Below, one piece after another: positions 2,526 through 21,200 of a DNA stretch of 23,110 nucleotides (within the stretch, counting starts at the first letter, position 1; each line of letters begins with the position of its first letter). The position numbers and the translations under genes are program-made. The notes beneath the pieces were generated by a model that was not told the DNA's origin, did not search any database, and was given only the letters and a program-made list of their open reading frames with translations. This DNA comes from a virus: IMG/VR virus record IMGVR_UViG_3300012861_000029. One strand, written 5' to 3'.

Positions 2526-2546
2526 GTAGGGGGCCAAGCCCCCTAC
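2526..2546. terminator. Perfect 9-bp GC-rich hairpin, GTAGGGGGC-caa-GCCCCCTAC
   Basis: It lies 11 nt after the stop at 2513-2515. There is no U-tract. It could act as a terminator, or as a phage ssDNA origin or packaging hairpin. Confidence 0.4.
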
Positions 2547-2583
2547 ACCCCTACAATGCCGGCTTCAACCACAGGGGGAAACC

Positions 2584-4227: not shown

Positions 4228-4553
4228 TACCAGATCCCCAGCGTCAGCACCCGACGCACGATGTAGAAGATCATCGCCGCGCCCAGCATGGTCAACGCCG
4301 GGCCCACCTGAAATACCTGGGCGAACCACAGCGCCGTGTTGCCCGCCTGCCCCATCATCCCGCCGATGCTCTGCCCCTGCATGAAGCTCGGCAACGGCAG
4401 CTTGTCCAGCACATACAGGATCATGCCCAACGACTGTTCCAGCCACATCACGAACAGGTCGCCAACGAAAGTGACCACGGCCTCCCACACGTCCTTTATT
4501 GCGTCCCACAACCACTGAGTGAGATCTGTCAACCAACCGGCTTGCATGTTCAT
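4227..4553 (-). CDS. pVI-like minor coat protein (DUF2523-like)
   Basis: [17 protein letters not shown]... is a hydrophobic 108-aa protein sitting between the pIII-like and pI genes. Its start overlaps the upstream stop (TGATG at 4551-4555). Confidence 0.65.
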   Translation of the reverse strand: MNMQAGWLTDLTQWLWDAIKDVWEAVVTFVGDLFVMWLEQSLGMILYVLDKLPLPSFMQGQSIGGMMGQAGNTALWFAQVFQVGPALTMLGAAMIFYIVRRVLTLGIW

Positions 4554-5803
4554 CAGGTCACCGCGATGCGAATAGCGAAATAGGCCGCGATCGCCAAGAT
4601 CACGAAACCACACGCCTGCAAGAACACCAGAAAGTCGCCGCTACAGTGCCCGCTGTAGTTCATGGCAGACCACCACTTTGTGCCCGGGATGGAGAACACC
4701 GGGCAACTTCCTCCGCCGGGCAGCGTCATGAAGGTACTGATGCCGCCCACGATGCGCGTTTGCTGCACCGAACCCATGAACTGATCCAGTACCGACGAAA
4801 CAGTCTTCTCTGACTTCGTGTAGAGCTTGCTGCGCTCCGCACCAGCGCCCGGGTCGTCGTCGTCACCATCGTCGCCGCCATCACCGCTGCCGCCGCTACC
4901 CGAGCCCGAGCCGGTCCCATCCCCCTTGCCCGTGCCGTCCTTGCCATAGGTGCTGTCGAACGTGGTGATATTGCTGGTAGTCGAAGCACCGCCGTTGGAC
5001 GAACTCGTTACCTGGCCCTGCCCGCTCACAGACCAATCGCCGCCATTGGCGGGAGGATCCTTGGGCGCGTTTATCTGAGCGCCCTCAGGCGACTTCGTGG
5101 CAGCCTGATTGCCGCTCTCTGCCGTCTTAACGCCGCTCTCGCCGGGCGACCAACAGAACTGTTTACCTGTAGACGCCGTCGCGCACGTCTTTCCGTCAGC
5201 GCGCACACACTGCGTCAACGTTCCGGTTTGAACGCACCTCTCTTGATCGCCGAGCGGCGAACTCGGGCCACCCACTCCATCGCCAACCGTGCACGCCTGA
5301 CCGGTCGGCGACATCTTGCTGGCCTTAGTGATCGTCACGCCCCCAACGGTCACAACGTCCCATGTGCCGCTAGTGTCCACTGCGAAGCCGCAACCACCCG
5401 AGCAGGCTCCCGCGTTGCCCTGGACACGTACATTCTGCAAGGCAGGCTGGCTCGCGCAGCTCTTCGTTGTATCGAAATAGAACTCAACACGATTCATGTA
5501 AGACGTCAGGTTCCAGAAGCTGCCACCCGGCGCACCCGCAGCACGCGCTTGGTATGCCCCATCCACCGAAGGGCACCACGCATAGGCACCCGCGTATAGG
5601 CTGCCGTTTGACGTAATGCCCGACTGGATCAAGACGGACACTGCCTGCGAGGCGTACGACATGCAGGACGAGTAGGCAGAACCTTGGGGGCACTTGTTCG
5701 CGAAAGTACACAAGTCGGCCGGAACATTGACTGCGGCGGCGAACGCAACGCGCGGCGCAAGCGCCAGCAACGCTACCAGCAGCACGGCAAGCACCCGGAT
5801 CAT
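4553..5803 (-). CDS. pIII-like adsorption / minor coat protein
   Basis: It has a signal peptide ([24 protein letters not shown]), a Cys-rich N-domain, a Gly/Ser/Asp linker ([26 protein letters not shown]) and a C-terminal membrane anchor ([16 protein letters not shown]). The ATG at 5801-5803 forms an ATGA overlap with the upstream micro-ORF. Confidence 0.8.
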
Positions 5804-5874
5804 GCGTCTAGCCCCTTGACACCCGCGATGCCGCACAGCGCGCCTACGAAGCCACAGAACAGCAGAAAGATCAT
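5800..5874 (-). CDS. 24-aa hydrophobic micro-ORF (pVII/pIX-like candidate), absent from the ORF track
   Basis: Hand translation gives [33 protein letters not shown] lies upstream, and its stop overlaps the pIII-like ATG. Confidence 0.45.
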
Positions 5875-5932
5875 GTCTCGCTCCCAGAAAAGGCGAAGGC
5901 GGCACCGAAGTACCGCCCTCCCCTTGCCACCA

Positions 5933-6061
5933 TCAGCCGAAGAAACCGGCCACCTTCTTCGCGCACCACTTGGTGAAGCCGACCAGGGCGATCAGCGCGG
6001 CAGCGCCGGTGATGGCCACGACGGCGTCGGCGGTGCTCAGGCCACTGAGGATGTCATCCAT
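5933..6061 (-). CDS. Major coat protein (pVIII-like), 42 aa, absent from the ORF track
   Basis: AGGAGA RBS 7 nt upstream. Hand translation gives MDDILSGLSTADAVVAITGAAALIALVGFTKWCAKKVAGFFG, with an acidic N-terminus, a hydrophobic core and a basic C-terminus, as expected for an inovirus major coat protein. Confidence 0.8.
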   Translation of the reverse strand: MDDILSGLSTADAVVAITGAAALIALVGFTKWCAKKVAGFFG

Positions 6062-6091
6062 TGCAATTCTCCTTTCATTGGTTGCGCCAGC

Positions 6092-6337
6092 TCACTTGAA
6101 CATCGCGGCGACGGAGCCGGCCAAGCGCCCCGCGACGAAACACACCAGCACCGCGCCAAAGCACGTGCTGAACCACAGCGCCGCGTCGCCCACGTCGGGC
6201 GGCGTCAACGCCTGTTGCACCAGCGAATACACGCCGTACTCGCTGCCAGTGACCAGCACGTAGCCCGTGCACTCACTGACCGCCTGCCCGGTGGGGGCAA
6301 GCGTTCCGTCAGCACGAAGGGCTACGCACAGGGCCAT
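6092..6337 (-). CDS. Hypothetical phage membrane / minor coat candidate
   Basis: An 81-aa ORF between the ssDNA-binding and coat genes, with a C-terminal TM segment (ALWFSTCFGAVLVCFVAGRLAG). No clear RBS; assigned by position only. Confidence 0.5.
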   Translation of the reverse strand: MALCVALRADGTLAPTGQAVSECTGYVLVTGSEYGVYSLVQQALTPPDVGDAALWFSTCFGAVLVCFVAGRLAGSVAAMFK

Positions 6338-6340
6338 GGA

Positions 6341-6619
6341 TTACTTCGCGCTCTTGGAGGCGAGGTCCGGAATCAGGCGGATGCGGCGACCGAATTCCAG
6401 CCCGCCGAACTTGCCGCTCTCCAACGAAGCCGGATCGATGACGTAATCACCCGGGATGTACGGGCGCTGGTCATCGTCCAGCGTGAGCTTGAACGGCAAG
6501 GGGAAATCTCCCTCGCGGATCACAGCGGCCTTCTGCTCTCGAAACGAGACAGCCGCCTTGCCCTCGCGGGCGGGGAACGAACGCGTTTCGACCGCATCGG
6601 TCATGACCTGGACTTTCAT
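6341..6619 (-). CDS. Probable ssDNA-binding protein (gV-like)
   Basis: The start MKVQVM has a GGAAGGTGG RBS, and its ATG overlaps the Rep stop (ATGA at 6616-6619). The 92-aa size and position right after Rep fit gV. Assigned by synteny rather than by motif. Confidence 0.55.
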
Positions 6620-7650
6620 ATTTGAACCACCTTCCACGCTATTGGCCGGCCCCCTAGGAGAGTTACGCGCCACGGACTGGGCCAGTATTCGCCCGTGAGC
6701 TTGTCGAACCATCCGCCCTTTGCCTTGCGAATGTCCGCGTCAACGCCGAGCACTTCGCGTGCCTCGACAGATGCTTTCCACCAGCGCAATTCGCGCTTGC
6801 TTTCTTCGTTCAAACCACCGCAGCCATGCGTACGGAACCCCTTCGGGAACGCACCAGCGATGAGCGACGTGAACTTGCTCGCGTACTTGGCGAGATAGCC
6901 AACCGCGTTGCGCGCACGCTCCATCTTCGTGGAGCCATGCGGCCACCAGCCCTTTTCGTCAGGCCGTCCAAACCAGATGCCGCGCGGAACCCATATCAGG
7001 ACGTGATAGTGCGGGCGTCCGCGCTGGGTGAGTTCGCCCACCCATAGGTAACGGAACACTTCACCTGCGAACCGTCGGGCCCGAGAGACAAGGCGATTGA
7101 AGAACCGCCGCATTGCTCTAAATAGCTCGCTAACGTCACGAGGGCTCGCACAGCTTCCGTCTCGGTAAGTGAGCGTGAGCATGTACCACGCGCCACGCCG
7201 CGACCCTTTTTGCGTTTCTTGCTCATGGAGCCTCGCGCTCGTTATCACGGACTTACGCAGCCGCTGCGCCCGCGCTTGCAGCGGGTCAATTTCAATCGCT
7301 ACACGACCGGTCTTCGCCGTGTCGTGACCACTTGTTTTGTAATGGACAAGCCCAAGGGCGAGCGCTTCGCGCTCGCCCTCCGAGGTCAGCGCGAGCGGAC
7401 CGCCCGCAGCCATGAATGAGGCAACAGAAGCCGTGCTAGCCCGCTTCTGGCGGGCGATGGTTTCCGACGCGAGTTCAGCACGACGCGACGCCGCCTGATG
7501 CTGTGCGACGTACGCGTCAATGTTGTCCAGGCGCGGCGGTCCAGCCTCGGCCATGCGGATGCGCGCATCGCGCGACGTGCACGCAACGCACAAGCCGCCC
7601 GGGAAGGCGTACGTGATTGGATCACCGCAGAAGTTGCAGGCCCGGCTCAT
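6616..7650 (-). CDS. Rolling-circle replication initiator (HUH endonuclease, gII/RstA-like)
   Basis: ATG at 7648-7650 with a GGAAGG RBS. It has an N-terminal CxxC...CxxC pair (CNFC, CVAC), an HUH motif (RPHYHVLIW) and a YxxK motif (GYLAKYASK). The 462-aa track ORF is over-extended across two small upstream ORFs. Confidence 0.85.
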
Positions 7651-7832
7651 GCGGCCTTCCGACGCAGCCGCAGCAGGCGCCGATTCGCACGCCAGATCCA
7701 GAACGCTTCCCGCATGCCATCGCGCACAAGCGATACACCGCCAGCGCCAACGAACGCACCAGCGGCAGCGGTCCAGAACAGCCACTTGACGAACTGGCCG
7801 AGTTCTTCGGGCGACGTGCAGAAGGTGCTCAT
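7647..7832 (-). CDS. Small phage membrane protein (hypothetical)
   Basis: 61 aa with one TM segment ([17 protein letters not shown]) and ATGA overlaps at both ends. Confidence 0.5.
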
Positions 7833-8032
7833 GCTGCACGCTTCCAGTCGCGCTCATCGGCGCGCTTCTTGCCCAGGGTGCGATTTGCCTCGGCCACCAG
7901 TGCGGCCGCACGGTACTTGCTGTCCAGCTGCGCCAGCCGGCGCTCGCCACACCACGCACAGAAACGCGCGAGCCCTGCGGCCACGGCGAACGCCGCAGCG
8001 GCAAGGCTCAGAATCATGATCAGATCCAGCAT
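7829..8032 (-). CDS. Small phage membrane protein (hypothetical)
   Basis: The start [20 protein letters not shown] has a GGAGGGG RBS. It is 67 aa and is the first gene of the minus-strand phage operon. Confidence 0.5.
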
Positions 8033-8092
8033 CGGCCGATCCCCTCCCCTGCCCCCGAAGGACCCGCCCACCGGTCAGGGGGCCGGGGGCCG

Positions 8093-8163
8093 GGTGTCAC
8101 CAATTCGGTGACGGCGGGGAGTGTATGCTCCTAGGTGACACTACTGTCAACGGTTTGGTGACA
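8093..8163. promoter_or_regulatory. Divergent phage control region with four GGTG(A/T)CAC-type repeats
   Basis: GGTGTCACC at 8093-8101, GGTGAC at 8107-8112, GGTGACA at 8134-8140 and GGTGACA at 8157-8163. The last runs straight into the regulator ATG, which has no SD and may be leaderless. Confidence 0.45.
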
Positions 8164-8669
8164 TGAATTCGCTAAATAAATTGCTTGACAAGGCGCGGTC
8201 CATGTGTAGCCGCGATAGCGATGCCGCAGTTGCCGAGGCTCTTAAGGTGTCGCGACAGACGCTAATGCAGTGGCGAAATGGCGAACGTCGCATCACCGAC
8301 GAACACCTCACAGCGCTTATTTCGCTTGCGAAAGAGGATCAGTCCGCGTTTATGCGGATCCGCGAGGAGATGGCCGGAACACCGGCCGAGCGCAAGCTTT
8401 GGGGGTCGCTGTTGGACCGAATTGGCGCGGCGATGGTGGTGGTAGCGGTCGGGGCGGTCGCCCTGGCCCACCGCGACGCGCATGAAGGACTGCAAGCAGC
8501 CCTACCCCTGCTTGCTGTCGCTGAACCTATATACATTATGCGAAATACGATCTGGCCCGGGCGGCGGCCCGGCTTCGCTGGATCTGGCTTTGGATCAAGA
8601 CTTGCCTACCCACCCGGCGCCCCACGGATAATGTTGTACGCACCGAAGCTTCCCCAGCTTGCGCGCTAG
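8163..8669 (+). CDS. Phage HTH regulator (Cro/CI-like, DUF3693-like); its 3' end crosses the prophage junction
   Basis: HTH segment AAVAEALKVSRQTLMQWRNGER. Codons 1-128 (8163-8546) are phage DNA. The last 40 codons are read from DNA beyond the dif-like repeat. Confidence 0.65.
   Translation: MNSLNKLLDKARSMCSRDSDAAVAEALKVSRQTLMQWRNGERRITDEHLTALISLAKEDQSAFMRIREEMAGTPAERKLWGSLLDRIGAAMVVVAVGAVALAHRDAHEGLQAALPLLAVAEPIYIMRNTIWPGRRPGFAGSGFGSRLAYPPGAPRIMLYAPKLPQLAR
8519..8546 (-). repeat. Hybrid dif-like site (prophage junction with a degenerate XerD arm)
   Basis: The minus strand reads ATTTCGCATAA-TGTATA-TAGGTTCAGCG. The XerC arm and central region are identical to 2051-2078, and the XerD arm is diverged, as expected for a phage attP-derived half. 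Confidence 0.8.
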
Positions 8670-9270
8670 GCCTCCCCATTTGACGCAGTCAATTGTCCCC
8701 GTCCACGAACGGACGTACTCAACTCTCCCCAGCGTCAATTGATTGCCTCCGAGGACATGCGGACGAAGCAACAGTCGCGGACAATGTGTACGGAATTTCC
8801 AGAAGATGATGGTTCGCGGCCGCCTTAGTGACGGATGATAGCCGTGGAGCACATTCAGTTTCTATCGACATATCCTGGGCTAGCGTCCTTTGCCAGCTAT
8901 CCAAGCGGCATTCGCAGAAACTTTGGCGCGCTTTCTTGGTGAGCTGCGTGGCGGCTGATTACCGCCAAACAACCGTCCCATATCCGCCCAACAAAACCCC
9001 AAATCGCTTCCCACAAGCACCCCATACCTGACGCGCCGCCAACAAACCGCCCCAATTTCAGTGCTGCTACCAACAAGCCGCGCCAAATTTGTCTACTGCA
9101 TGAGGCGTGACCATTCCCAAGTAGGAACTGCCGCCGTCGATCGGCCAGACCATGGCCCCAGCTTGGATCTGCGTCCGGCTCTATGGGATGCCTTGCCGTC
9201 CGATCTGTAAACATAGCGGTGTCCACAATGAGCTCCGAGGGATGTCTGCCATGGGGCTCCAGTGGACCTG

Positions 9271-9298
9271 CCCTACCCTCGATAAATCTCCCTAATCC
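9271..9298 (+). repeat. 28-bp repeat, copy 1 (upstream of the patatin operon)
   Basis: ccctaccctcgataaatctccctaatcc matches 13225-13252 at 25 of 28 positions. It is followed by a C-rich block and an imperfect hairpin homologous to 13195-13225. Confidence 0.6.
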
Positions 9299-9549
9299 CT
9301 GCCCCTCCCCACAATGTCCGGCTCTGGCTCACAAGCAGACATCCACGAATAGCCAATGAATCACACGCATTGCACCGGAGCTACGGTCTGTCAGCGTTTC
9401 CCTGGCCCCGGTCTGCAATCCGCTAGGGGAGCGCGGTAATTGTGTCAAGATACAGCCTCGAAAGTCGTCAAAGGCCAAATCGAAAAAAACTCGCCAACGT
9501 AGTTAGCGTGCAAGCCAATATTAATCTCCTAGACAGTGAAACATAGATC

Positions 9550-10476
9550 ATGCCTAAAGACGATGGCGTCTATCGAATCTTGGCCTTAGACGGCGGGGGC
9601 GCCAAGGGCTTCTATACCCTAGGGGTCCTAAAGGAGATTGAGGCCATGGTGGGGTGCCCGCTGCATGAGCGGTTCGATCTGATCTTCGGGACTAGTACTG
9701 GAGCGATCATTGCCGCTTTGATCGCGCTCGGCTATCAAGTAGATCAGATCCACGAACTCTACAGATTGCATGTACCTAGGGTCATGGCCAGTAAGGGGGC
9801 CGCCGCTAAGACTTCCGCTTTGCGGGACTTGGCTGGAGAGGTGTTCGGGAACAAGACCTTTGACGATGTACGGACCGGTATCGGCATAGTCGCAACGCGC
9901 TGGGCCACTGAGAAGCCGATGATCTTCAAGGCTGACGTTGCACAAGCGCACGGTCGCAAGGCGACATTCAAGCCAGGATTCGGCGTGAACATCGCGGATG
10001 CCGTCCAGGCGTCGTGTTCCGCCTACCCCTTCTTCGAACGGAAGATCGTCACGACCTCCGACGGAAACAGGATCGAGCTGATAGATGGCGGCTACTGCGC
10101 GAACAACCCGACGCTTTTTGCGATCGCCGATGCAACGGCCGCGCTGAACAAGGAAAGAAAGGATATTCGCGTCGTGAACGTCGGCGTCGGCATCTATCCG
10201 GAGCCGAAGCCTGGTTTGCTGATGAAGATCGCGAAGAAGTGGCTTGCAGTCCAGTTGTTGCAAAAGACCCTGGAGATAAATACGCAGTCGCTTGACCAAC
10301 TGCGCGAAGTATTGTTCAAGGATGTCGCGACGATCCGGATAAGCGACACATTCGAACGCCCTGAAATGGCAACGGACCTCATGGAGCACGACCTCGGCAA
10401 ACTGAACATGCTTCGTCAATGCGGCAGTGAGTCGTTCGCTGCCCGCGAAGCGCAACTGAAAGAACTTCTTCTCTGA
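9550..10476 (+). CDS. Patatin-like phospholipase (CapV-like effector candidate)
   Basis: Oxyanion motif DGGGAKG (aa 14-20), nucleophile elbow GTSTG (aa 47-51, Ser49) and catalytic Asp in [10 protein letters not shown] (Asp179). Confidence 0.9.
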
Positions 10477-11384
10477 TGGAACCGAGGAACATGGGGATTC
10501 CTGAAAATCAACTCGACACTTGGTCCCATCAAGGTTCGGTCATGCAATCTGCAGCGACTTACAACGCGATCAAGAACGCTTTGGAATCCACAAACGCCGC
10601 ATACCATGCCAAGGACTTCAAGGTCTTCCTTCAAGGTTCGTACGGTAACGACACCAATATCTATGCCGAAAGCGATGTAGACGTCGTAATCCAGCTCGAC
10701 GACGTCTACTTCAGCGATGTGACCTCGCTGCCGCCGGCAGACAAGGAGGCTTATGACCGGGCTTTTGTTCCAGCGACCTATTCCTACGACCAATACAGAA
10801 GTGATGTAGTCAGTGCCCTTATCAGTCGATTTGCAACCGACGTCACAAATGGTCATAAAGCCATCGCCGTAGCGGCGAACGGCAACCGCCGCAAGGCCGA
10901 CGTCATTGCGGCAATGCAATTCCGTCGATACTGGAAGTTCAGAAGCGCTTATGACTCGTCCTATGATGAGGGAATCTGCTTTTTCACTTCCGACGGTCAG
11001 CAGATCGTCAACTACCCCAAGCAGCACTCTGAAAACCTGACCATCAAGCATCAAGCCAGCAACGGGTGGCTGAAGCCGATGATCCGCGTATTGAAGAACA
11101 TGCGAAGGAAGCTGGTCGCCGATGGCGTCCTGAACGCAAGCGTGGCACCTTCGTACTATCTCGAAGGACTGCTCTACAACGTACCTTCCGGAAAGTTCGG
11201 ACTGAGCTACGAGGACAGCTTTGTCAACGCGATTAACTGGATACAGTCAGAGGCCGACAAGAGCAAGCTGGTGTGTGCCAACGAACAGTATTACTTGCTT
11301 TGGGAAGGGCCCCCCACCTCGTGGAAACCGTCCAACGCGGAGGCGCTCCTCCAGGCCGTCATTAAGCAATGGAATGAATGGTGA
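10476..11384 (+). CDS. Pol-beta-fold nucleotidyltransferase, SMODS / CD-NTase-like
   Basis: The ATG overlaps the patatin stop (TGATG). Motifs: GS at aa 54-55, DVD at aa 67-69 ([24 protein letters not shown]), a third acidic residue in KADVIAA (Asp142) and a C-terminal [14 protein letters not shown] helix typical of this family (from memory). Confidence 0.75.
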
Positions 11385-11447: not shown

Positions 11448-13193
11448 ATGAAAGGACGCACGATCTACCTCTTCATGTGGGGCTACCAGGACAGCTATAG
11501 GATCAGTCTTCAAGGCCTGGCCAGAGATGTCCTCTCCAAACTCGGAGTCGTGGACGATGCCTACGTCCTGCTTGTAGGCGCCCGCGCTCCTGGGAGCAAT
11601 AGCCCCAACCCCGTCTGCGTCGAGCCGGAAGACGGCCAATGGCCGCTGTCGCTCTTCGACGGCTTGCTCGAAAAAGTGGAGTCGAAATACCAGGGGCATC
11701 ACCTACAGACAGTATTCTACGGCGATGCCCCCAGCATGAGCGACAAGCCCGAATGGATTCGGCGCGACGCGGCGCGAATGGCGGTTGCCGATGCGCTGGA
11801 GCCCTATGACAAGGCCTACGAGGTAACGTCATTCTGCGGCGAGCCCAGGCGCATCGGAGACTACTACGTCACTCCGGTCATACAAGTCCCGACGGCGACC
11901 TTCGCCCAGTTTCCGCCCTTGTCGCCGCGGCCAGTGGGAGCATTCGAAAGAGGTTATGGATACCGCAGCCTGATCCATGCGGCGATCTATGCCGTGCTCG
12001 AAGAAGCAACCGGGAAGCTTCAGGCCCCGGAACCCGGGCGCCTTTTCCATGACGGTGTGAGGAACGCGGAGGAAATTGTCCGTGTAGCGGGAGAGAACTT
12101 CATGCATACGCCGGGTTTGTCGATCGACAGGCGGTACATTCATACCGATCTGTTCAAGATTCTGAATATCGTCTCCTCTCTTCTCTACGAAGGATCGAAA
12201 GGAATCGGTGACCTCGTAATCGTCGATCCCACGAACGCGGCGGTCGACTTCGCCTTGAAATTCGCCAGTCCCGTGCCGCTCCGGGAGCCACGCTGGATCA
12301 GGAAGGTCCTGCAGATGGCCGCGACCGGCGTCGGGATCATTGGGGACCATCAGAACATCTACGGCCTAGGCAGACTAAAGGAATCCCATAACCCTGCAGA
12401 ACAGGATGCGTTTATCGTCACCTTCGTTGACCACTTTCACTGGAAGCTGCGTTGCGGCGACCAAATGCTGATACGAAGCCACTATGGAGTACCCAGACTC
12501 CCGCAGGAACCCATCGACAAGAGGGCCTTTCTCAGTAGCTACGCGCGACTCTTCCCGCGATCCCTGCCAGAAGACGGACTGCGTGCATGGGGTCTACTGA
12601 ATGCACAGACCCGCATGGAGCATGGCAGCATGATTGTGTTCGCTGAAGACGCGGCCAGCGAGGCAGAACGACTCAGCAGGCAAGGCACGCCGATCACGCC
12701 AATCAACCTTACTGATGAGCTGCTTCAAAGCGTCAGCGGCATCGATGGAACGATACTCGTCGATCCCAGCGGGTACTGCCACGCTATCGGTGTCATCCTG
12801 GACGGAGATGCCAGCGAGGAGTGCATGCCATCAAGAGGGTCCCGATACAATTCCGGAGTAAGGTACGTGGGCTCCGGCAGCATCAAGAGACTGGCGGTCA
12901 TTGTTTCAGATGACCGCACCATCGATGTTATTCCCGCGCTGAGACGATTGGTCAGTCGGACATTGATCGAACGACACGTCGCCTTCCTCGAATCTGCAAC
13001 GCTCGACAACTATCACGATTCCAGGAGTTGGCTCGACAAGCACCGCTTCTACATCAATCCCGAGCAATGCGAAAGGATCAACGCGGCGCTTTCCCGCTTC
13101 GACAATCTCCCGAAGGAGGCAGGCCTGCTCTACTTCGAAACCGAGCGATTCGAAGCTCATCCAGAGATGGACGAAAGTTACCTAGTCATTTAG
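11448..13193 (+). CDS. 581-aa protein with a divergent DisA_N / diadenylate-cyclase-like C-terminal domain; the N-terminal ~390 aa are unassigned
   Basis: AGGGA RBS 7 nt upstream. Residues ~390-497 align by eye to the CdaA/DisA DAC domain: GSMIVFAE versus GALIVIE, IDGTILVD versus HDGAVIM, GSRYNSGVRY versus GTRHRAAVGI, and AVIVSDDRTIDVI versus TIIVSEETGGVSV. Confidence 0.6.
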   Translation: MKGRTIYLFMWGYQDSYRISLQGLARDVLSKLGVVDDAYVLLVGARAPGSNSPNPVCVEPEDGQWPLSLFDGLLEKVESKYQGHHLQTVFYGDAPSMSDKPEWIRRDAARMAVADALEPYDKAYEVTSFCGEPRRIGDYYVTPVIQVPTATFAQFPPLSPRPVGAFERGYGYRSLIHAAIYAVLEEATGKLQAPEPGRLFHDGVRNAEEIVRVAGENFMHTPGLSIDRRYIHTDLFKILNIVSSLLYEGSKGIGDLVIVDPTNAAVDFALKFASPVPLREPRWIRKVLQMAATGVGIIGDHQNIYGLGRLKESHNPAEQDAFIVTFVDHFHWKLRCGDQMLIRSHYGVPRLPQEPIDKRAFLSSYARLFPRSLPEDGLRAWGLLNAQTRMEHGSMIVFAEDAASEAERLSRQGTPITPINLTDELLQSVSGIDGTILVDPSGYCHAIGVILDGDASEECMPSRGSRYNSGVRYVGSGSIKRLAVIVSDDRTIDVIPALRRLVSRTLIERHVAFLESATLDNYHDSRSWLDKHRFYINPEQCERINAALSRFDNLPKEAGLLYFETERFEAHPEMDESYLVI

Positions 13194-13252: not shown

Positions 13253-13406
13253 GAATCTAAGGCATCGCTTCCAGTAACGCACGGCTCGACTCCGTATCAC
13301 TCCATTCGCGGCATTGCCCCCCCCTCCCCCACCTGAAGAAGCTGCCCAATGCTCTCGGCAGTCCTTTGCCCTATCATTGCTCCGGCATGGGGTGCAGGGG
13401 GTCGCC

Positions 13407-16400
13407 TTGAGCGTTACATCGGTCGAAGACAATTTCTGGTTCCTCAGTGGGCACGACCCCATGTTCTTGAAGCTCGCGTCTATGGCCGAGCAGGTCTTCG
13501 CCGCCGACCCCAATACGACGCTGATCAAGCTCCGCCAGCTCGGGGAGGCGTTTGCGAAGGACCTGGCGAGCCGAGCCGGCCTCCAGGTCGACGAGCGGGC
13601 ATCGCAGGCCGATCTCATCTTCCAGATCTCCCGGGAACTGCGGCTCGACCCGCGGATCCGGGAGCTGTTCCATGTCCTTCGCGTCGAAGGCAACAAGGCC
13701 ACCCACGGTTTCGCCACTCAACATCGCGAAGCGATGGACGGCCTGAAGGTCGCCCGCGAGCTGGCTGTCTGGTACCACCGCGCGTTCGGCCAGGACGCGG
13801 CAGATTTCAAACCCGGACCGTTCTCACCTCCCAAGGACCTGGCCGCTCCCCTGCGCGAGGTCCAGGCCGAGGTGAAGCAGCTCCAGGCCGAGCTTGACGC
13901 CGAGCGCAAGGCGCATGACGAAAGCCTGAAGCTGGCGGAGCTGCAGCAGGAGCAGTCCCAGCTACATGCCGCCCTGGCCGAAGCCATGGACGTGGAGGCA
14001 AGGCAGCAGGCCGCCTTGGTCGCTGAACGCGAACGCGAGCTTGCACAGCTGCGCGAGGGGTTCGAGCAGCGCATCGCACGGATGTCTCAGGCGTCGGATC
14101 CCCAGGGTGAGGACACCGGCAAGGTCCAGGCCGCCACCTACCGTGCCAGCCAGGCCTTCGACCTGAGCGAGGACCTCACCCGCATCCTGATCGACCAGCA
14201 GCTGTGCGATGCCGGCTGGGAAGCTGACTCACTCGAACTCACCCATGCCGGCGGCACCCGGCCCGAGAGAGGCGTCAACCGGGCTATCGCAGAGTGGCCG
14301 ACCCGGGTGCCTGGCGCGAACGCGGACTACGTGCTGTTCAGTGGCCTGGTGCCGGTCGCCATCGTCGAGGCCAAGCGCAAGCGGATCAACGTAGCCGACC
14401 GGATCACGCAGGCGGAGCGCTATGCACGCGACCTGGTTCCGTCCGGGGATCTGCAGTCCGCATGGCGGGAGGCGGGGCTCGCTGGTCCCTGGCCCGACGG
14501 CGAAGGCGGCGGCTTTCACGTGCCGCTGGCGTTTTCCTGCAACGGCCGCCCCTACGTCAGGCAGTTGGCCGAGCAGTCCGGCATCTGGTTCCGCGACCTG
14601 CGCCGCCCCTCCAACCTCAGGCGTGCCCTGCAGGGGTTCTATACGCCGGAAGGCATCGCCGACCTGCTCCCGCGTGACATCGACAGCGCACAGTCGCGGC
14701 TGGCCCAGGAGGGCATGGCCTACCTGCGCCTGCGCGACTACCAGCAACAAGCCATCCAGGCGGTCGAGGACGCCATGGCCGCCGGCCATCGTACCTGTCT
14801 CCTGGCCATGGCCACCGGCACCGGCAAGACCCGGACCATCATCGGGCTGATCTACCGCCTGCTGAAAACCGAGCGCTTCCGCCGGATCCTGTTCCTCGTC
14901 GACCGCTCCGCACTCGGAGAACAGGCCCAGGACGCCATGGGCGAGATGCGCCTGGAGCAGAACCAGACGCTCTCTCAGATCTACAACCTGGACGGCCTGC
15001 AGGACACATCCACCGCGGACGAGGCGCGCGTGCAGGTGGCCACCGTGCAGGCCATGGTCCGTCGCATCTTCCAGTCAGACGCCCCTCCCCCGATCGACAC
15101 TTTCGACTGCATCGTCGTGGACGAGGCCCATCGCGGCTACACCCTCGACCTGGAGATGACCGAGGGCGAACTGGCCGTCCGCGATCATGCACAGTACATG
15201 TCGCAGTATCGGCGCGTGCTCGACTATTTCGACGCCCACCGTATCGGCCTGACCGCCACTCCCGCCAAGCACACCACCGACATCTTCGGGAAGCCGGTCT
15301 ATACCTACAGCTACCGCGAAGCGGTCGCCGACGACTGGCTGATCGACCACGAGCCGCCGATCCGCTACGAGACCCTGCTCAACACCCGCGGCATCCACTT
15401 CGAGCGTGGCGAACACGTCAGCGTGGTCAACGTCCAGACTGGCGAAGTCGACACCGCGGAGCTGGAGGACGATCTCGACTTCAACGTCGAATCCTTCAAC
15501 CGCCGCGTCATCACCCCGGCCTTCGATCAGGTCATCTGTGAACAGCTGGCGCAGGAGCTGGATCCCGATGGCGATGAGAAGACGCTCATCTTTTGCGTAA
15601 GCCAGCCCCACGCAGAACGCGTGAAGCATCTGCTCGATGAGGCATTCAAAGCCGTCCACGGCGAACAATACAACCAGGCCAGCGTGGCCGTTGTCACGGG
15701 GCGCAGCGACAAGGTGGACGCGCTGATCAGGCGATACAAGAACGAGCGCCACCCCAACATCGCCATCACAGTCGACCTGCTCACCACCGGCATCGACGTG
15801 CCCGCCATCTCCAACTTGGTATTCATGCGCCGGGTCCGCTCGCGCATCCTCTACGAGCAGATGAAGGGCCGGGCCACCCGCCGCTGCGACGACATCGGCA
15901 AGACCGTCTTCCGCATCTACGATCCGGTGGACCTGTACGCCGCGTTGGAAGACGTGGACACCATGAAGCCGCTGGTCAAGGACCCTAACGTCAGCATCGA
16001 ACAGCTGCTGCACGAGCTGAAGGACCCACGCAGCCTCGCCACCCACGGCAGCAACGGTAACAGCCATGCGCAGGACGTCCTCGACCAGCTCGGCCAGAAG
16101 CTGATGCGCGTTCTGCGCAAGGCCGCGCATCGTGCCGCCGGCAAACCACCGCTGCGCGACAAGTTGAACCAGCTCGAGGCTGCGTGGGGTGTCGCGCCGG
16201 AGTGGCTGCATGCCCACCTCCACGACCTGGGCCCGCAGGCCTCCGCGCAGTTCCTGCAGCAGCAGCCGCTGCTCCTACAGCAGCTGGCCGAGGTCGGCGC
16301 CCTGCTCGGTTCCGACAACTACCCGATCATTTCCACTCACCAGGACGAATTGATCGACCGTCAGCAGAACTACGGCGTGCACGAACAGCCGGCCGACTAT

Positions 16401-16889
16401 CTGGAGAGCTTCAACCGCTTCATCCGTGAGAACCTCAATCAATCGGCCGCCCTGAGCGTCATCGTCAACCGCCCCCGCGACCTCACCCGCGCCCAGCTGC
16501 GTGAAGTCCGCCTGCTGCTGGACGAACACGGCTTCACCGAAACCAACCTGCGCGGCGCCCTGCGCGAGAGCACCCAACAGGAAATCGCGGCCAGCATCAT
16601 CGGCCACATCCGCCGCGCCGCCCTGGGCGAAGCGCTGGTCCCGTTTGAACACCGCGTCGGCCGCGCCATGCAGGCCATCTACGCCAGCCGTGCCTGGACG
16701 CCGCTGCAACGGCGCTGGCTAGAGCGCCTCGCCCAGCAGCTCGTGCACGAGGTGGTGCTGGATCGCGAGGTGGTGCAGCGCAACTTCGAGGCCGACGGTG
16801 GCGCGCCCAGGCTCGACAAGCTGCTCGTTGGCCAGCTCGACCTGATCCTGAACGATATCAGGGAGCAACTCTGGGACCAGGCTGGTTGA
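13407..16889 (+). CDS. hsdR: Type I restriction enzyme R subunit with an N-terminal DUF4145-like domain and coiled coil
   Basis: PD-(D/E)xK nuclease motif (ADYVLF...VAIVEAKRKR); helicase motif I (LLAMATGTGKTRT), motif II (IVVDEAHRG), motif III (GLTATP) and motif VI (QMKGRATR); EcoEI-R-type C-terminal domain. The start is uncertain. TTG 13407 has an AGGGGG RBS 6 nt upstream. In-frame alternatives are GTG 13392 and TTG 13314, the track start, which would add a poly-Pro N-terminus. Confidence 0.9.
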   Translation: MSVTSVEDNFWFLSGHDPMFLKLASMAEQVFAADPNTTLIKLRQLGEAFAKDLASRAGLQVDERASQADLIFQISRELRLDPRIRELFHVLRVEGNKATHGFATQHREAMDGLKVARELAVWYHRAFGQDAADFKPGPFSPPKDLAAPLREVQAEVKQLQAELDAERKAHDESLKLAELQQEQSQLHAALAEAMDVEARQQAALVAERERELAQLREGFEQRIARMSQASDPQGEDTGKVQAATYRASQAFDLSEDLTRILIDQQLCDAGWEADSLELTHAGGTRPERGVNRAIAEWPTRVPGANADYVLFSGLVPVAIVEAKRKRINVADRITQAERYARDLVPSGDLQSAWREAGLAGPWPDGEGGGFHVPLAFSCNGRPYVRQLAEQSGIWFRDLRRPSNLRRALQGFYTPEGIADLLPRDIDSAQSRLAQEGMAYLRLRDYQQQAIQAVEDAMAAGHRTCLLAMATGTGKTRTIIGLIYRLLKTERFRRILFLVDRSALGEQAQDAMGEMRLEQNQTLSQIYNLDGLQDTSTADEARVQVATVQAMVRRIFQSDAPPPIDTFDCIVVDEAHRGYTLDLEMTEGELAVRDHAQYMSQYRRVLDYFDAHRIGLTATPAKHTTDIFGKPVYTYSYREAVADDWLIDHEPPIRYETLLNTRGIHFERGEHVSVVNVQTGEVDTAELEDDLDFNVESFNRRVITPAFDQVICEQLAQELDPDGDEKTLIFCVSQPHAERVKHLLDEAFKAVHGEQYNQASVAVVTGRSDKVDALIRRYKNERHPNIAITVDLLTTGIDVPAISNLVFMRRVRSRILYEQMKGRATRRCDDIGKTVFRIYDPVDLYAALEDVDTMKPLVKDPNVSIEQLLHELKDPRSLATHGSNGNSHAQDVLDQLGQKLMRVLRKAAHRAAGKPPLRDKLNQLEAAWGVAPEWLHAHLHDLGPQASAQFLQQQPLLLQQLAEVGALLGSDNYPIISTHQDELIDRQQNYGVHEQPADYLESFNRFIRENLNQSAALSVIVNRPRDLTRAQLREVRLLLDEHGFTETNLRGALRESTQQEIAASIIGHIRRAALGEALVPFEHRVGRAMQAIYASRAWTPLQRRWLERLAQQLVHEVVLDREVVQRNFEADGGAPRLDKLLVGQLDLILNDIREQLWDQAG

Positions 16890-16897
16890 TGTGCAGA

Positions 16898-16928
16898 TGA
16901 GCCGATTATTGGGTATATTCGGCTCATA
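16898..16928 (+). terminator. 9-bp stem hairpin between hsdR and fic
   Basis: ATGAGCCGA-(13 nt)-TCGGCTCAT, 9 nt after the hsdR stop. No U-tract. Confidence 0.35.
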
Positions 16929-16973
16929 CTTCGAGCCAAATAGATCCGGTATTCAGCTCATGCAGACCACCCG

Positions 16974-18158
16974 ATGACCGTACCCCGCTGGATCTGGCGG
17001 CAGCCCACCTGGCCCCGCTTCACATGGGATGCCACGGCGCTGGCCAGCCTGTTGCGCAACTGCCAGCAGGTGCAGGGCCAACTGCTCGGCATGGCCGGTG
17101 CCGCCACCGGCGACCTGCAGGCCGAGGAAGCACTCGACACCCTGCTCTCCAACATCGTCGACTCCTCGGCGATCGAGGGCGAGCAGTTGGACGTGGGTTC
17201 GGTGCGCTCGTCGCTGGCCCGCCGGCTGGGCCTGGTCGACGAACCTGCGCGCCGCACCACCGCCCACGCCGAAGGCCTGGCCGAGCTGATGCTCGATGCC
17301 ACCCGGCATGCCGACGCCCCGCTCGACCTGCCGCGCCTGCTGCAGTGGCATCGCTGGCTGTTCGCCGCCAGCGACGACCTCCTGCCGACGGGTATCCAGG
17401 TCGGTGCGCTGCGCGGCAGCGAGCCCATGCAGGTGGTGTCGGGACGCATCGATCGTCCCACCGTGCATTTCGAAGCCCCGCCTCGCGAAGGACTCGAAGC
17501 GCAGTTGGACGACTTCATCGCCTGGTTCAACGCCTCGCGCCAGGACAACACGCTAGATCCCCTGCTTCGGGCGGGCGTCGCGCACTTCTGGTTCGTCACC
17601 CTGCATCCCTTCGACGACGGCAACGGCCGCCTGACGCGCGCCCTTACCGACCTTGCGCTCGCCCAGGCACAGTCGCAGGTCATCCGTTTCCACGCCATGT
17701 CGGCCAGCATCCTTGCCGACCGTGCCGGCTATTACCGCGTGCTCGAAGCGAGCCAGAAGAACGGCCTCGACATCACCGCGTGGCTGCAGTGGTTCCTGCA
17801 CACCCTGCACGACAGCCTGACCCGCGCCCTGCACCGCATCGACCGCGTGTTGGCCAAGGCACGCTTCTGGCAGACCCACCGCGAACAGACGCTGTCGACC
17901 GAGCAGGTCAAGGTGCTCAACCGCCTGCTGGACGTCGGCGAGCGCGGCTTCGAGCAGGGCCTGACCGCGCGCCATTACCAGGCGATCGCGAAGGTCTCCA
18001 AACCCACCGCCACCCGCCACATCGCCGACCTGCTTGAGAAAGGCTGCATCCGCCGCCTGCCAGGTGGTGGGCGCAGCACCCGCTATGAGATCAACGCACC
18101 GGCACCGGGCATCTCGCTGCCGCCCTGCCCCACTCCCATGAAAGACCCCAAGGCATGA
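16974..18158 (+). CDS. Fic family protein (DUF4172 N-terminus, class II auto-inhibited type, C-terminal wHTH)
   Basis: Fic core HPFDDGNGRLTRAL; N-terminal inhibitory-helix motif SxxxEG (SSAIEGEQL); WIWRQPTWPRFTW N-terminus typical of DUF4172-Fic proteins. The stop overlaps the hsdM ATG (ATGA at 18155-18158). Confidence 0.9.
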   Translation: MTVPRWIWRQPTWPRFTWDATALASLLRNCQQVQGQLLGMAGAATGDLQAEEALDTLLSNIVDSSAIEGEQLDVGSVRSSLARRLGLVDEPARRTTAHAEGLAELMLDATRHADAPLDLPRLLQWHRWLFAASDDLLPTGIQVGALRGSEPMQVVSGRIDRPTVHFEAPPREGLEAQLDDFIAWFNASRQDNTLDPLLRAGVAHFWFVTLHPFDDGNGRLTRALTDLALAQAQSQVIRFHAMSASILADRAGYYRVLEASQKNGLDITAWLQWFLHTLHDSLTRALHRIDRVLAKARFWQTHREQTLSTEQVKVLNRLLDVGERGFEQGLTARHYQAIAKVSKPTATRHIADLLEKGCIRRLPGGGRSTRYEINAPAPGISLPPCPTPMKDPKA

Positions 18159-19693
18159 CCCACAACGACATCGTCCAGAAGCTCTGGAACCTTTGCGACG
18201 TCCTCCGCGACGACGGCATCAACTACAGCGACTACGTCACCGAGCTGGTGCTGCTGCTGTTCGTGAAGATGGAATACGAGCAGGTGCAGAACAACGCCGC
18301 CTTCGAGCACAAGCTACCCAAGGACTGCCGCTGGCCGGATCTGGAAGGCCGCTCCGGTCTCAACCTGCTCAATCACTACCGGCAGATGCTGTTGGACCTG
18401 GGCAAGAGCAGCGACCCAATGATCGCGGCCATCTACGCCGACGCGCAGACCCGCCTCAAGGAGCCGCGCCACCTGGAAACCCTGGTCAGGGCGCTGGACG
18501 GGCTGGACTGGTTCAGCGCCCGCGAGGACGGCCTGGGCGACCTGTACGAAGGCCTGCTGCAGAAGAACGCCAACGAGACCAAGTCCGGCGCCGGCCAATA
18601 CTTCACCCCGCGCCCGCTGATCGACGCCATCATCCGCTGCATCAAGCCACAGCCCGGTGAAACCATCCAGGACCCTGCCGCCGGCACCGCTGGCTTCCTG
18701 ATTGCCGCCGACACTTACATCAAGGGCAACACCAACGACCTGTACGCGCTGGAGGATAAGGCCCGCCGCTTCCAGCGTCGCAAGGCCTACACCGGCATGG
18801 AACTGGTACCCAGCACCCGCCGGCTGGCGCTGATGAACTGCCTGCTGCACGGCATCGAGGGCGAAGGCGAAGGCGTGGTGCAGCTGGGTAACAGCCTCGG
18901 CAATCCCGGCGCCGCGCTGCCCAAGGTCGACATCATCCTGTCCAACCCACCGTTCGGTACCGCCAAGGGTGGCGGCGGCCCGACCCGCGACGACCTCACC
19001 TACCGCACCAGCAACAAGCAGCTCGCCTTCCTGCAGCATATCTATCGCGGCCTCAAGCCTGGAGGCCGTGCCGCCGTGGTGCTGCCGGACAACGTGCTGT
19101 TCGAGGCCGGCGTCGGCACCGAGATCCGCCGCGACCTGATGGACAAGTGCAATCTGCACACCCTGCTGCGCCTGCCCACCGGCATTTTCTATGCGCAAGG
19201 CGTGAAGACCAACGTGCTGTTCTTCCAGAAAGGCAGCGCCGATAACCCGCGCCAGGAGACCGGCTGCACGCAGGCAACCTGGATCTTCGACCTGCGAAGC
19301 AACATGCCCAGCTTCGGCAAGCGCACCCCGTTCGGTGAGGCCCACCTCAAGCCGTTCGAGAAAGCCTACGGCAAGGACCCGAACGGCCGCAGCAAACGCA
19401 AGGAAGAGGGCGAGGAAGGTCGCTTCCGCTGCTTCACCCGCGAGCAGATTTCCGAACGCGGCGACTCGCTGGATATCAGCTGGTTGAAAGATGCCGACAG
19501 CGTGGATGCCGACAGCCTACCGGCGCCGGAAGTGCTGGCGGCCGAGGCGATGGCGGAACTGTCAGAGGCGTTGCGCGAGCTGGATGCACTGATGCAGGCG
19601 CTGGGCGCCGGCGATGAAGCGCTGGAGCAGAAGCGGTTGCTGGCTGAGGTGATGGGGCTGGAAGTGGCGAGTGGCGAGGTGGACGGTGAGTGA
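18155..19693 (+). CDS. hsdM: Type I R-M N6-adenine DNA methyltransferase subunit
   Basis: HsdM N-terminal helix bundle (IVQKLWNLCDVLRDDG...LVLLLFVKM), SAM motif I (DPAAGTAGFL) and catalytic motif IV (NPPFG). Confidence 0.95.
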   Translation: MTHNDIVQKLWNLCDVLRDDGINYSDYVTELVLLLFVKMEYEQVQNNAAFEHKLPKDCRWPDLEGRSGLNLLNHYRQMLLDLGKSSDPMIAAIYADAQTRLKEPRHLETLVRALDGLDWFSAREDGLGDLYEGLLQKNANETKSGAGQYFTPRPLIDAIIRCIKPQPGETIQDPAAGTAGFLIAADTYIKGNTNDLYALEDKARRFQRRKAYTGMELVPSTRRLALMNCLLHGIEGEGEGVVQLGNSLGNPGAALPKVDIILSNPPFGTAKGGGGPTRDDLTYRTSNKQLAFLQHIYRGLKPGGRAAVVLPDNVLFEAGVGTEIRRDLMDKCNLHTLLRLPTGIFYAQGVKTNVLFFQKGSADNPRQETGCTQATWIFDLRSNMPSFGKRTPFGEAHLKPFEKAYGKDPNGRSKRKEEGEEGRFRCFTREQISERGDSLDISWLKDADSVDADSLPAPEVLAAEAMAELSEALRELDALMQALGAGDEALEQKRLLAEVMGLEVASGEVDGE

Positions 19694-21164: not shown

Positions 21165-21200
21165 CATTGCCAACTCAACGCACCGCAAAGGACCGCACGC

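Follow-up and report, generated by a model that had tools for sequence, protein, structure and literature searches.

A three-gene cassette in the DNA analysed here (virus record IMGVR_UViG_3300012861_000029; the whole stretch of 23,110 nucleotides is referred to as the window) is an ortholog of the DS-2 anti-phage system, a variant of CBASS. The product of its third gene, DS-2C, contains a region which profile alignment and a structural model indicate to be a genuine but divergent diadenylate cyclase (DAC) domain. The best explanation of the data is that DS-2C is a positively acting diadenylate cyclase of the CdaG family within a DS-2 ortholog, and we consider this reading probable. The CdaG family, the DS-2 system, the assignment of a DAC domain, the connection with CBASS and the requirement for two motif residues have all been published and are not new. 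Galperin (J Bacteriol 2023, as cited in later work) described CdaG with its DACNG-DACNH-DAC arrangement, and the architecture and its link to CBASS were reported there and by DeWeirdt (2026), Ragucci (2026) and Nabhani (2026). The features of the cassette are listed in Table 1.

Table 1. Positions of the DS-2 genes in the window and of the domains and motifs of DS-2C
Feature	Position	Strand	Evidence
DS-2A, patatin-like phospholipase effector, 308 aa	9550..10476	+	Pfam Patatin 6e-30; PADLOC CBASS phospholipase effector 3e-165
DS-2B, CD-NTase / SMODS-type oligonucleotide cyclase, 302 aa	10476..11384	+	PADLOC Cyclase PDLC00788 1.6e-128; weak Pfam SMODS match
DS-2C / CdaG-family protein, 581 aa	11448..13193	+	NCBIfam DS2_3_antiphage (NF053872) equivalog 775.7 bits, cut-off 630
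DACNG domain, aa 10-219, presumed sensor or regulatory module	11475..12104	+	Pfam PF21752 3.4e-61, full profile length
DACNH domain, aa 234-336, predicted degenerate DAC-like fold without catalytic motifs	12147..12455	+	Pfam PF21750 9.5e-28
Predicted catalytic-type DAC (DisA_N-like) domain, aa ~370-500	12555..12947	+	Foldseek, hhalign, family Pfam matches
DGT motif, D433-G434-T435, DGA counterpart	12744-12752	+	Translation and hhalign register
S-R-Y-N, aa 465-468, T-R-H-R counterpart	12840-12851	+	Translation and hhalign register
S487-D488-D489, counterpart of CdaA-type S-E-E	12906..12914	+	hhalign and canonical alignment register
C-terminal helical region, aa ~504-581, weak DisA-linker-like similarity	12957..13190	+	Model helices 504-515, 522-531, 538-552

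The DS-2 cassette

DS-2A matches the NCBIfam model DS2_1_antiphage (NF053870; 510 bits, cut-off 400), and its translation retains the GGGxKG, GTSTG and IDGG motifs intact. DS-2B scores 457 bits against DS2_2_antiphage (NF053871, cut-off 350) and the start of its gene overlaps the stop codon of the patatin gene. The NF053872 match to DS-2C pairs residues 6-578 with profile positions 1-576. A spacer of 63 bp separates the CD-NTase and DS-2C genes, both of which are on the plus strand. A terminator scan of this spacer predicted none on the plus strand, and a promoter scan gave nothing exceeding shuffle expectation.

The canonical CBASS equivalogs of NCBIfam were not reached (CBASS_lipase, 140 against 200; CBASS_cyclase_b, 37.7 against 200). 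As the PADLOC models for the CBASS cyclase and effector match strongly while these equivalogs are missed, the cassette is a CBASS-like variant. PADLOC 2023 contains no model for DS-2C, and its sole match to this protein was a spurious one to PD-T7-4 at E 0.02. The window is a defence island, with a type I R-M system and GmrSD, and a filamentous-prophage-like region lies beside it. A tRNA scan of the window found none; hence an integration site was not found. The GC content is 62% and the best protein match is to Pseudoxanthomonas (92%). The DS-2 genes are already named by the NCBI annotation pipeline, which leaves little weight to their discovery here; the value left lies in adding a high-GC, Xanthomonadaceae-like genome to those with a copy of DS-2.

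The diadenylate cyclase domain

An earlier note on this DNA, made from the sequence alone, had proposed a divergent DAC-like domain at 12615-12938 with DGT and SRYN at the positions of DGA and RHR. This segment of the plus strand translates to MEHGSMIVFAEDAASEAERLSRQGTPITPINLTDELLQSVSGIDGTILVDPSGYCHAIGVILDGDASEECMPSRGSRYNSGVRYVGSGSIKRLAVIVSDDRTIDVIPA, which corresponds to aa 390-497 of the 581-aa ORF at 11448-13193. An AlphaFold2 model of DS-2C (pLDDT 75.7) recovered the DAC fold. In a Foldseek search of the PDB, ranks 1-29 were all DisA, CdaA, DacA, CdaM or DacM, with a probability of 1.00 and E-values of 2e-5 to 5e-3, and the next match had an E-value of 0.4.

The family C-terminal region (67 sequences) was aligned by hhalign with four canonical DACs verified in the PDB, giving an E-value of 5.7e-6 and a probability of 85% over 121 columns. 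With gaps scored in this way, all motif blocks that the earlier note had aligned by eye were kept in register. HGSMIVF is paired with FGALIFL, IDGT with MDGA (D75-G76-A77 of TmDisA), GSRYNSGVRY with GTRHRTAERL and VIVSD with IAVSR, so that R466, Y467 and N468 fall on R108, H109 and R110. A chance resemblance was rejected on the basis of this E-value and of the 29 out of 29 top fold matches.

The divergence of the domain was also borne out. Pfam DAC (PF02457) gave no match, even at E<=10, to the whole of DS-2C or to its isolated C-terminal and flagged regions, and hmmsearch of the PDB sequences with close and diverse family profiles returned no DAC, with noise only at E>0.3. The lack of a direct Pfam or PDB-sequence match shows that the domain is truly divergent, and since these direct searches were empty, profile-profile and fold comparisons were needed to establish the link to DACs. 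PF02457 was matched by 48 of 67 diverse full-length homologs, with a best E-value of 6.5e-15. The E. coli DS-2C ortholog has been assigned a DAC domain at residues 382-499 by HHblits, with a published probability of 99.3%.

Conservation of the motifs

At the DGA position of DS-2C both D433 and G434 are kept, and the third residue, which is threonine here, is alanine, serine or threonine across the family. Threonine was observed in 120 of 121 close-clade sequences, and the wider family was found to hold DGA (100), DGS (14) and DGT (12). DG[A/T/S] are the normal family versions of this motif. At the RHR position, where the window protein has R466-Y467-N468, only the first arginine is kept. R-[Y/F]-N occurs in 131 of 132 diverse members, with N468 present in all 132, and the longer pattern RG[AS]R[YF]NS was found in about 128 of them. 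R-[Y/F]-N characterises the family as a whole; it is the normal version of RHR and not a local decay. Serine at position 487 and aspartate at position 489 are each present in 131 of the 132 diverse members; we take S487-D488-D489 to form the phosphate and metal site, as in CdaA-type cyclases. In members 26-48% identical to the query, residues D433, G434, R463, G464, R466, N468, S487 and D489 show little or no variation. A decayed or pseudogenised cyclase was rejected, as the motifs do not vary among hundreds of homologs.

The earlier note had read the altered motifs as a sign that the domain binds a nucleotide rather than synthesising one. On such a reading, the DAC domain would be a non-catalytic receptor that binds the CD-NTase product, or some other nucleotide, and relays it to the system. 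The changes of RHR to RYN and of DGA to DGT and the absence of a direct Pfam DAC match would be in keeping with this, as would the association of DG[T/S] with the CD-NTase-linked clade (29 of 40 DG[T/S] loci are linked, against 4 of 37 DGA loci), which is a minor new point. The motif argument loses its force, however, because R-[Y/F]-N is present throughout the family, in Pfam-DAC-positive members and in a species with a reportedly active enzyme. The homolog in that species, Hymenobacter wooponensis, has IDGA and RGARYNS at these positions and is recognised by Pfam DAC with 39 bits. In addition, hardly any variation is seen at the metal and phosphate residues (D433, G434, S487 and D489), a pattern more in keeping with catalysis than with binding alone.

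Domains outside the cyclase

The N-terminal stretch of about 240 aa, which the earlier note could not assign to any family, is largely covered by the DACNG match. DACNH spans the weak echo of the DAC pattern that had been noticed upstream, at aa ~250-310 (GIGDLVIVDP...ATGVGIIGDHQNIYGLG), and taken as a hint of a degenerate tandem copy. Both DACNG and DACNH are matched by Pfam in 67 of 67 diverse homologs. The order in the window protein, with Pfam DACNG and DACNH followed by the DAC domain recognised from fold and profile-profile alignment, is that of CdaG.

An AlphaFold2 model of the isolated DACNH domain (pLDDT 82.3) was compared with the PDB by Foldseek, and the best 50 matches were all diadenylate cyclases, with E-values from 4.6e-3 and a TMq of about 0.5. 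The tandem copy thus has structure on its side but not sequence, as hhalign of DACNH against DAC and against canonical DACs was not significant (probability <=2.7%). We regard DACNH as a predicted degenerate DAC-like domain, and it is the fold search that suggests the tandem copy. DACNG against DAC or DACNH, and the C-terminal region of DS-2C against DisA, likewise gave hhalign probabilities of <=2.7%. The C-terminal helical region is missing in the shorter Hymenobacter homologs; in the E. coli ortholog, the C-terminal region has been matched to PF10635 by HHblits with a published probability of 81.7%. The value left in the protein analysis is the recognition of R-[Y/F]-N as the family norm and the independent structural support for DACNH as a degenerate DAC fold.

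Mutants and activity of related proteins

The E. coli DS-2 system (DeWeirdt et al., Science 2026, PMC13092281; Ragucci et al., bioRxiv 10.64898/2026.08.10.743927) gives about 4 logs of protection against phage Bas1. Defence is abolished by the D433A mutation of E. coli DS-2C, which removes the aspartate of DGT, and by an alanine mutation of the SRYN arginine. The latter is labelled R468A in the published work, where residue 468 is asparagine; according to the primer sequence, the codon changed is that of the arginine in GS-R-YN, residue 466. No toxicity is reported for the catalytic mutants in the text and strain table, and the strains were plated for phage assays. DS-2C proteins from Hymenobacter, including H. 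wooponensis, and from Flagellimonas have been reported to make c-di-AMP in vitro, and EcDS-2C is not named among the DS-2C enzymes active in vitro.

Mutation of the Asp or the Arg would also abolish nucleotide binding, so these mutants alone are no proof of catalysis. They could also be explained by loss of binding in a receptor, and the place of EcDS-2C outside the listed active proteins leans the same way. For the DGT-type, CBASS-linked subclade, the case for activity is a genetic one. Weighed against the family-wide motif and the almost invariant metal and phosphate residues, a receptor role is nevertheless unlikely in our judgement.

The mutants also bear on a guard or decoy arrangement of the kind seen in Panoptes and PanDA/Panoptoo, in which constitutive c-di-AMP would restrain an effector until phage sponges deplete cyclic nucleotides and release it. 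Minimal DACs operate in this way with 2TM-beta effectors, E. coli DS-2 adjoins a type II CBASS and an mCpol/Cap15 pair, and some family members have a gene other than the patatin beside the CD-NTase or lie near Cap15-type genes. The DS-2C catalytic mutants, however, are described as losing defence and their strains were plated, contrary to the prediction for a signal of the repressor type. In this system a patatin phospholipase, and not a Cap15-type receptor, serves as the effector, and DS-2C has large sensor-like domains, which the constitutive minimal DACs do not have. Membership of PanDA/Panoptoo was also rejected for the window protein, which has 581 aa with three further regions, and a CD-NTase and a patatin phospholipase as neighbours. 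We find a guard role quite improbable.

Linkage to the CD-NTase

The family comprises 2573 clusters at 50% identity. A related CD-NTase was found within 6 kb in 34 of 80 species-level loci, and the genes differ in order and orientation among them; this count is a lower bound, as the iterative CD-NTase HMM detects no enzymes beyond the clade of the window CD-NTase. For the other loci, neighbours on the same strand were scanned with PADLOC and Pfam, and the top families listed included no cyclase. Linkage was observed for 16 of the 21 homologs that are at least 48% identical. The biochemically active homologs come from a Bacteroidota subclade of the DGA type. In the loci surveyed, this subclade, which includes the Hymenobacter proteins, is shorter and adjoins a TonB_C gene, with no CD-NTase within 6 kb. 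The homologs from the genus with active enzymes are thus DGA-type proteins without CD-NTase linkage in these loci.

These counts also bear on whether DS-2C might be an independent neighbour, such as a c-di-AMP synthase of the housekeeping type or a defence gene in its own right, placed beside a type I CBASS through the clustering of genes in defence islands. That 46 of the 80 loci lack a related CD-NTase within 6 kb (with the clade-limited HMM), the TonB_C neighbours of the Hymenobacter copies and the type I R-M system and GmrSD in the window would all be compatible with an independent gene. Nonetheless, the linkage survives changes in gene order and is frequent among the closer homologs, the 63-bp same-strand spacer has no predicted terminator, and point mutations in E. 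coli DS-2C abolish the defence provided by the three-gene unit. We consider an independent gene very improbable indeed.

Proposed mechanism

In the preferred reading of DS-2C as a positively acting CdaG-family cyclase, two DAC domains would come together face to face to condense a pair of NTPs, using D433/G434, R466 and the S487-D-D489 site. The product would most likely be 3'3'-c-di-AMP formed from two ATP. The cyclase activity would act positively and be required together with the CD-NTase for a phospholipase-based abortive defence, and DACNG and DACNH may gate the cyclase. For the window copy, we infer the activity of DS-2C, its product and the connection of its signal to the CD-NTase and phospholipase.

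There is a small chance that the CD-NTase-linked DG[T/S] proteins are not plain c-di-AMP synthases. DS-2C could then form the second step in a relay of two cyclases, in which DACNH (or DACNG) would gate the DAC domain on sensing either a phage cue or the product of the CD-NTase. Otherwise, a remodelled pocket (T435, Y467, N468 and the CHAIGVILDG block) could make another product which is the real activator of the patatin. The earlier note had found a DAC-fold protein next to a second, unrelated nucleotide-signal synthase unusual, but the combination of a DAC with a CD-NTase is a published defining feature of DS-2. The presence of this second cyclase in a CBASS-like system is an interesting question which the field has already recognised.

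Comparison with known systems

The closest known system is that of E. coli. Its three genes correspond to those of the window and follow one another in the same order and at similar spacing, and the two cassettes are collinear over 99% of 3.6 kb with 67.8% nucleotide identity. E. coli DS-2C (WP_001593457.1 / WP_016240614.1) also has 581 aa and is 66% identical to the window protein in a gapless alignment, where the IDGTIL, PSRGSRYNSGVRYV and SDDRT motifs are identical. The two differ in host. Their surroundings differ as well, with the type II CBASS and mCpol/Cap15 (Panoptes-like) genes in E. coli replaced in the window by the filamentous-prophage-like region, the type I R-M system and GmrSD. 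The CdaG family shares the domain architecture of the window protein, which differs in belonging to the DG[T/S], CD-NTase-linked subclade with a C-terminal helical extension.

The canonical DACs (DisA from T. maritima, 3C1Y, and M. tuberculosis, 9Y4S; CdaA/DacA) share the fold and the order and register of the G-x-[LM]-I-V strand, D-G-x, G-x-R-x-x and V-S-[ED]. Identity to these proteins is only about 18%, and DS-2C carries R-[YF]-N instead of RHR. The DS-2C family also has an invariant C-H-A-I-G-V-I-L-D-G block between the motifs. The N-terminal partner domains are different, and DS-2C has neither an HhH DNA-binding domain nor a membrane anchor.

The PanS minimal DACs of PanDA/Panoptoo resemble DS-2C in the use of a DAC for anti-phage immunity, often in the vicinity of CBASS. 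They are constitutive proteins of about 150 aa that are partnered with a 2TM-beta effector and act as negative regulators. In contrast, the much longer DS-2C combines its DAC domain with sensor-like domains and with CD-NTase and patatin partners, and its catalytic residues are needed for defence in E. coli.

Assignment of the DAC domain

The segment that the earlier note had read as a DAC-like domain lies in DS-2C (Table), and all the sequence blocks quoted for it were found in the translation of the window. A Pfam scan of DS-2C detected only DACNG (residues 10-219, E = 3.4e-61) and DACNH (residues 234-336, E = 9.5e-28). No DAC/DisA_N match was obtained even at E<=10, including with the isolated region, and family profiles run against PDB sequences found no cyclase. 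Three independent lines of evidence, namely fold, intermediate sequences and profile-profile alignment, establish the segment as a DAC domain. The AlphaFold2 model of DS-2C, built with 34 homologs (pLDDT 75.7 overall, ~80 at residues 370-450, ~55-75 at 451-500 and <50 at 460-464), matched exclusively DisA, CdaA, DacA, CdaM or DacM at Foldseek PDB ranks 1-29, with a probability of 1.00 and E values of 2e-5 to 5e-3; the next match had an E value of 0.4. Pfam PF02457 was matched by 48 of 67 diverse full-length homologs that are 26-47% identical to the query (best E 6.5e-15). The family C-terminal region was also aligned by hhalign with four PDB-verified canonical DACs (DisA of T. maritima, M. tuberculosis and M. 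smegmatis, and CdaA of E. faecium), giving an E value of 5.7e-6 and a probability of 85% over 121 columns. In this alignment HGSMIVF pairs with FGALIFL, VIVSD with IAVSR, IDGT with MDGA (D75-G76-A77) and GSRYNSGVRY with GTRHRTAERL, where S465, R466, Y467 and N468 are located opposite T107, R108, H109 and R110 respectively. The by-eye alignment proposed earlier has the same register and did not collapse when gaps were scored. For the E. coli ortholog (EcDS-2C), published HHblits results place PF02457 at residues 382-499 with a probability of 99.3%.

Features of the window (blank cells: nothing recorded)
Feature	Coordinates	Strand	Remarks
KfrA_N protein	945-1877		
DUF3653 phage protein	2087-2515		
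Zot	2902-4536	-	
G2P-type replication initiator (Rep)	6616-8004	-	
DUF3693 HTH phage-related protein	8163-8669		
Patatin phospholipase	9550-10476	+	NCBIfam DS2_1_antiphage 510, cut-off 400
Nucleotidyltransferase (CD-NTase)	10476-11384	+	NCBIfam DS2_2_antiphage 457, cut-off 350
DS-2C	11448-13193	+	581 aa; NCBIfam DS2_3_antiphage 775.7, cut-off 630
DACNH	12147-12455		residues 234-336
DAC segment	12615-12938	+	DS-2C residues 390-497
DGT motif	12744-12752	+	translation
C-H-A-I-G-V-I-L-D-G block	12777-12806		residues 444-453
SRYN motif	12840-12851	+	translation
hsdR, N-terminal DUF4145	13314-16889		type I R-M
Fic/DOC + DUF4172 gene	16974-18158		between hsdR and hsdM
hsdM	18155-19693		type I R-M
hsdS	19671-21164		type I R-M
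GmrSD-type type IV restriction enzyme	21201-23009		

Conservation of the catalytic motifs

DGT was found in 120 of 121 sequences of the close set (120 cluster representatives, at least 57% identical), where P-S-R-G-S-R-Y-N-S-G-V-R-Y is almost invariant. The wider family comprises 2573 clusters at 50% identity (E<=1e-3). Of 131 representatives with 26-48% identity to the query, 100 have DGA as their first motif, 14 have DGS and 12 have DGT. The second motif, R-G-[A/S]-R-[Y/F]-N-S, occurs in ~128 of 132 wider-family sequences, with N468 present in all 132 and S487 and D489 each in 131. This conservation across the close and wider family marks RYN as a family hallmark under strong purifying selection and not a product of local erosion.

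Between the two motifs we noticed a C-H-A-I-G-V-I-L-D-G block with no counterpart motif in canonical DisA/CdaA. Homologs down to 26% identity all keep G448, L451, D452 and G453, and nearly all keep C444 and I450; the block may serve as a lid or base-recognition element specific to this family.

All 11 Hymenobacter homologs share IDGA and RGARYNS. As an example, the protein at L063, a locus of the H. wooponensis genome, carries both and passes Pfam DAC with 39 bits. We infer from the species that it is the active H. wooponensis DS-2C for which c-di-AMP synthesis is reported in the preprint text available to us, which gives no accession. The Hymenobacter CdaG homologs (L063, L067, L069, L072-L074, L076, L077 and L081) are ~490-520 aa long and do not have the C-terminal ~80 aa; a TonB_C protein gene is directly upstream at 9/9 loci checked, and no related CD-NTase was found within 6 kb. 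It thus seems that the in-vitro c-di-AMP activity published for "DS-2C" belongs to a subclade without CBASS linkage.

These observations bear on the suggestion that the DS-2C subclade with altered motifs binds a nucleotide rather than synthesising one. It keeps some probability for this subclade, since the active enzymes are DGA-type proteins of the short, TonB_C-associated, CD-NTase-free kind and EcDS-2C does not appear among the proteins reported active. However, RYN is family-wide and is also present in H. wooponensis, and its motifs together with the reported c-di-AMP synthesis make RYN compatible with cyclase activity, so binding without synthesis is disfavoured.

The DACNH domain

The stretch at residues ~250-310, in which the earlier note saw a degenerate tandem copy, falls within DACNH. 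At the sequence level the idea found no support, as hhalign of DACNH against DAC was not significant (probability 2.7%); the best alignment with TmDisA, also non-significant, pairs KVLQMA--ATGVGIIGDHQNIY with KLYELSKMDGAIVLSEDITKIY and corresponds to the echo described before. At the fold level it was borne out: with DACNH modelled alone (residues 228-348, pLDDT 82.3, pTM 0.76), the best 50 PDB fold matches were all diadenylate cyclases (E from 4.6e-3, probability up to 1.00, TM ~0.5). DACNH is thus a degenerate DAC-like fold that lacks the DGx and RxN motifs and conserves residues of its own, R285 without exception and K286, G306 and W332 almost so. It could form a nucleotide-sensing pocket.

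The DS-2 operon and its surroundings

All three consecutive genes exceed the curated cut-offs of the NCBIfam DS2 equivalog models, and PADLOC identified the first as a CBASS phospholipase effector (3e-165) and the second as an oligonucleotide cyclase (1.6e-128). The patatin motifs GGGxKG, GTSTG and IDGG are retained. The CD-NTase start overlaps the patatin stop. The 63-bp spacer ahead of DS-2C contains an AAGGGA Shine-Dalgarno-like site, and no terminator is predicted there on the + strand. An E. coli locus annotated "anti-phage phospholipase / nucleotidyltransferase / protein", which 18 of the 5426 complete genomes of this species carry, aligns collinearly with 99% of the 3.6-kb cassette at a nucleotide identity of 67.8%. 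The third protein of that locus, WP_001593457.1, is 66% identical to the window's DS-2C over 580 residues with zero gaps, and the two do not differ in the IDGTIL, PSRGSRYNSGVRYV and SDDRT blocks.

The GC content of the three genes (53-57% vs 62-66% in the flanks) fits horizontal acquisition. Directly upstream, 945-8669 resembles a filamentous (inovirus-type) prophage or remnant, and the DS-2 genes may ride on or beside such an element. On the right, 13314-23009 forms a defence island of type I R-M followed by a GmrSD gene. The window has no tRNA genes.

Gene linkage

A CD-NTase related to that of the window lies within 6 kb in 34 of 80 species-level loci, and in 16/21 of those with homologs at least 48% identical. 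Adjacent, same-strand patatin-CDN-DAC was the arrangement in 15 loci; the CDN is upstream on the same strand, non-adjacent and without a related patatin in six, CDN and patatin are upstream on the opposite strand in four, DAC precedes patatin-CDN in four and other arrangements occur in five. We noticed that the DGx variant tracks this linkage (DGT 23/32, DGS 6/8, DGA 4/37), a pattern confounded by shared ancestry and of which we found no mention in the portion of the DS-2 literature available to us. Same-strand neighbours of unlinked loci are mixed (TonB_C, Cap15-type 2TM effectors, methyltransferases and toxin-antitoxin genes). In six loci (L026, L030, L032-L034 and L079), where no related patatin was found, a gene of ~220-250 aa between the CD-NTase and DAC genes may encode a different effector.

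Comparison with known systems

The E. coli DS-2 was validated by DeWeirdt et al. (Science 2026, PMC13092281) as a system made up of a phospholipase, a cGAS-like cyclase and a diadenylate cyclase; these authors reported that 15/30 DAC homologs adjoin a CBASS and cited Galperin (J Bacteriol 2023) for the CBASS-DAC association from earlier bioinformatics. Two DAC catalytic-residue mutants, named D433A and R468A in their Table S11, eliminated defence: the wild type protected against phage Bas1 by ~4 logs, D433A by 0.18 and the Arg mutant by -0.37. Read from the primers, D433A alters the Asp of I-D-G-T, and "R468A" the codon directly before Y-N-S-G-V-R-Y, the Arg of S-R-Y-N at residue 466 of the 581-aa sequence. 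The published label is at odds with the E. coli DS-2C sequence (L001, the E. coli DS-2 locus, 7858-9603), where residue 468 is Asn.

DS-2C is best explained as a regulated cyclase of the DAC type, with an activity that has a positive role in defence and is needed for it, and with DACNG and DACNH as putative gating modules; what the DGT-type enzyme produces and how both cyclases are wired to the phospholipase we infer. A Panoptes-like decoy, with a nucleotide signal holding the effector off, is unlikely because loss of defence is what is reported for the catalytic mutants, toxicity being unmentioned and the strains having been plated for phage assays, and because the effector is a patatin phospholipase and not a Cap15-type receptor.

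In E. coli, DS-2 is directly followed at L001 10025-15593 by a complete type II CBASS (CapV, DncV, Cap2-like E2 and Cap3) and then by a Cap15-family/mCpol (Panoptes-like) pair, so that three defence systems based on nucleotide signalling follow one another. None of these neighbours occurs in the window. The earlier observation is confirmed and its interpretation partly supported, and every element of it is already in print. The feature is an ortholog of DS-2, a system already described and experimentally validated, and its remaining interest is why a second cyclase should be required in a CBASS-like system.
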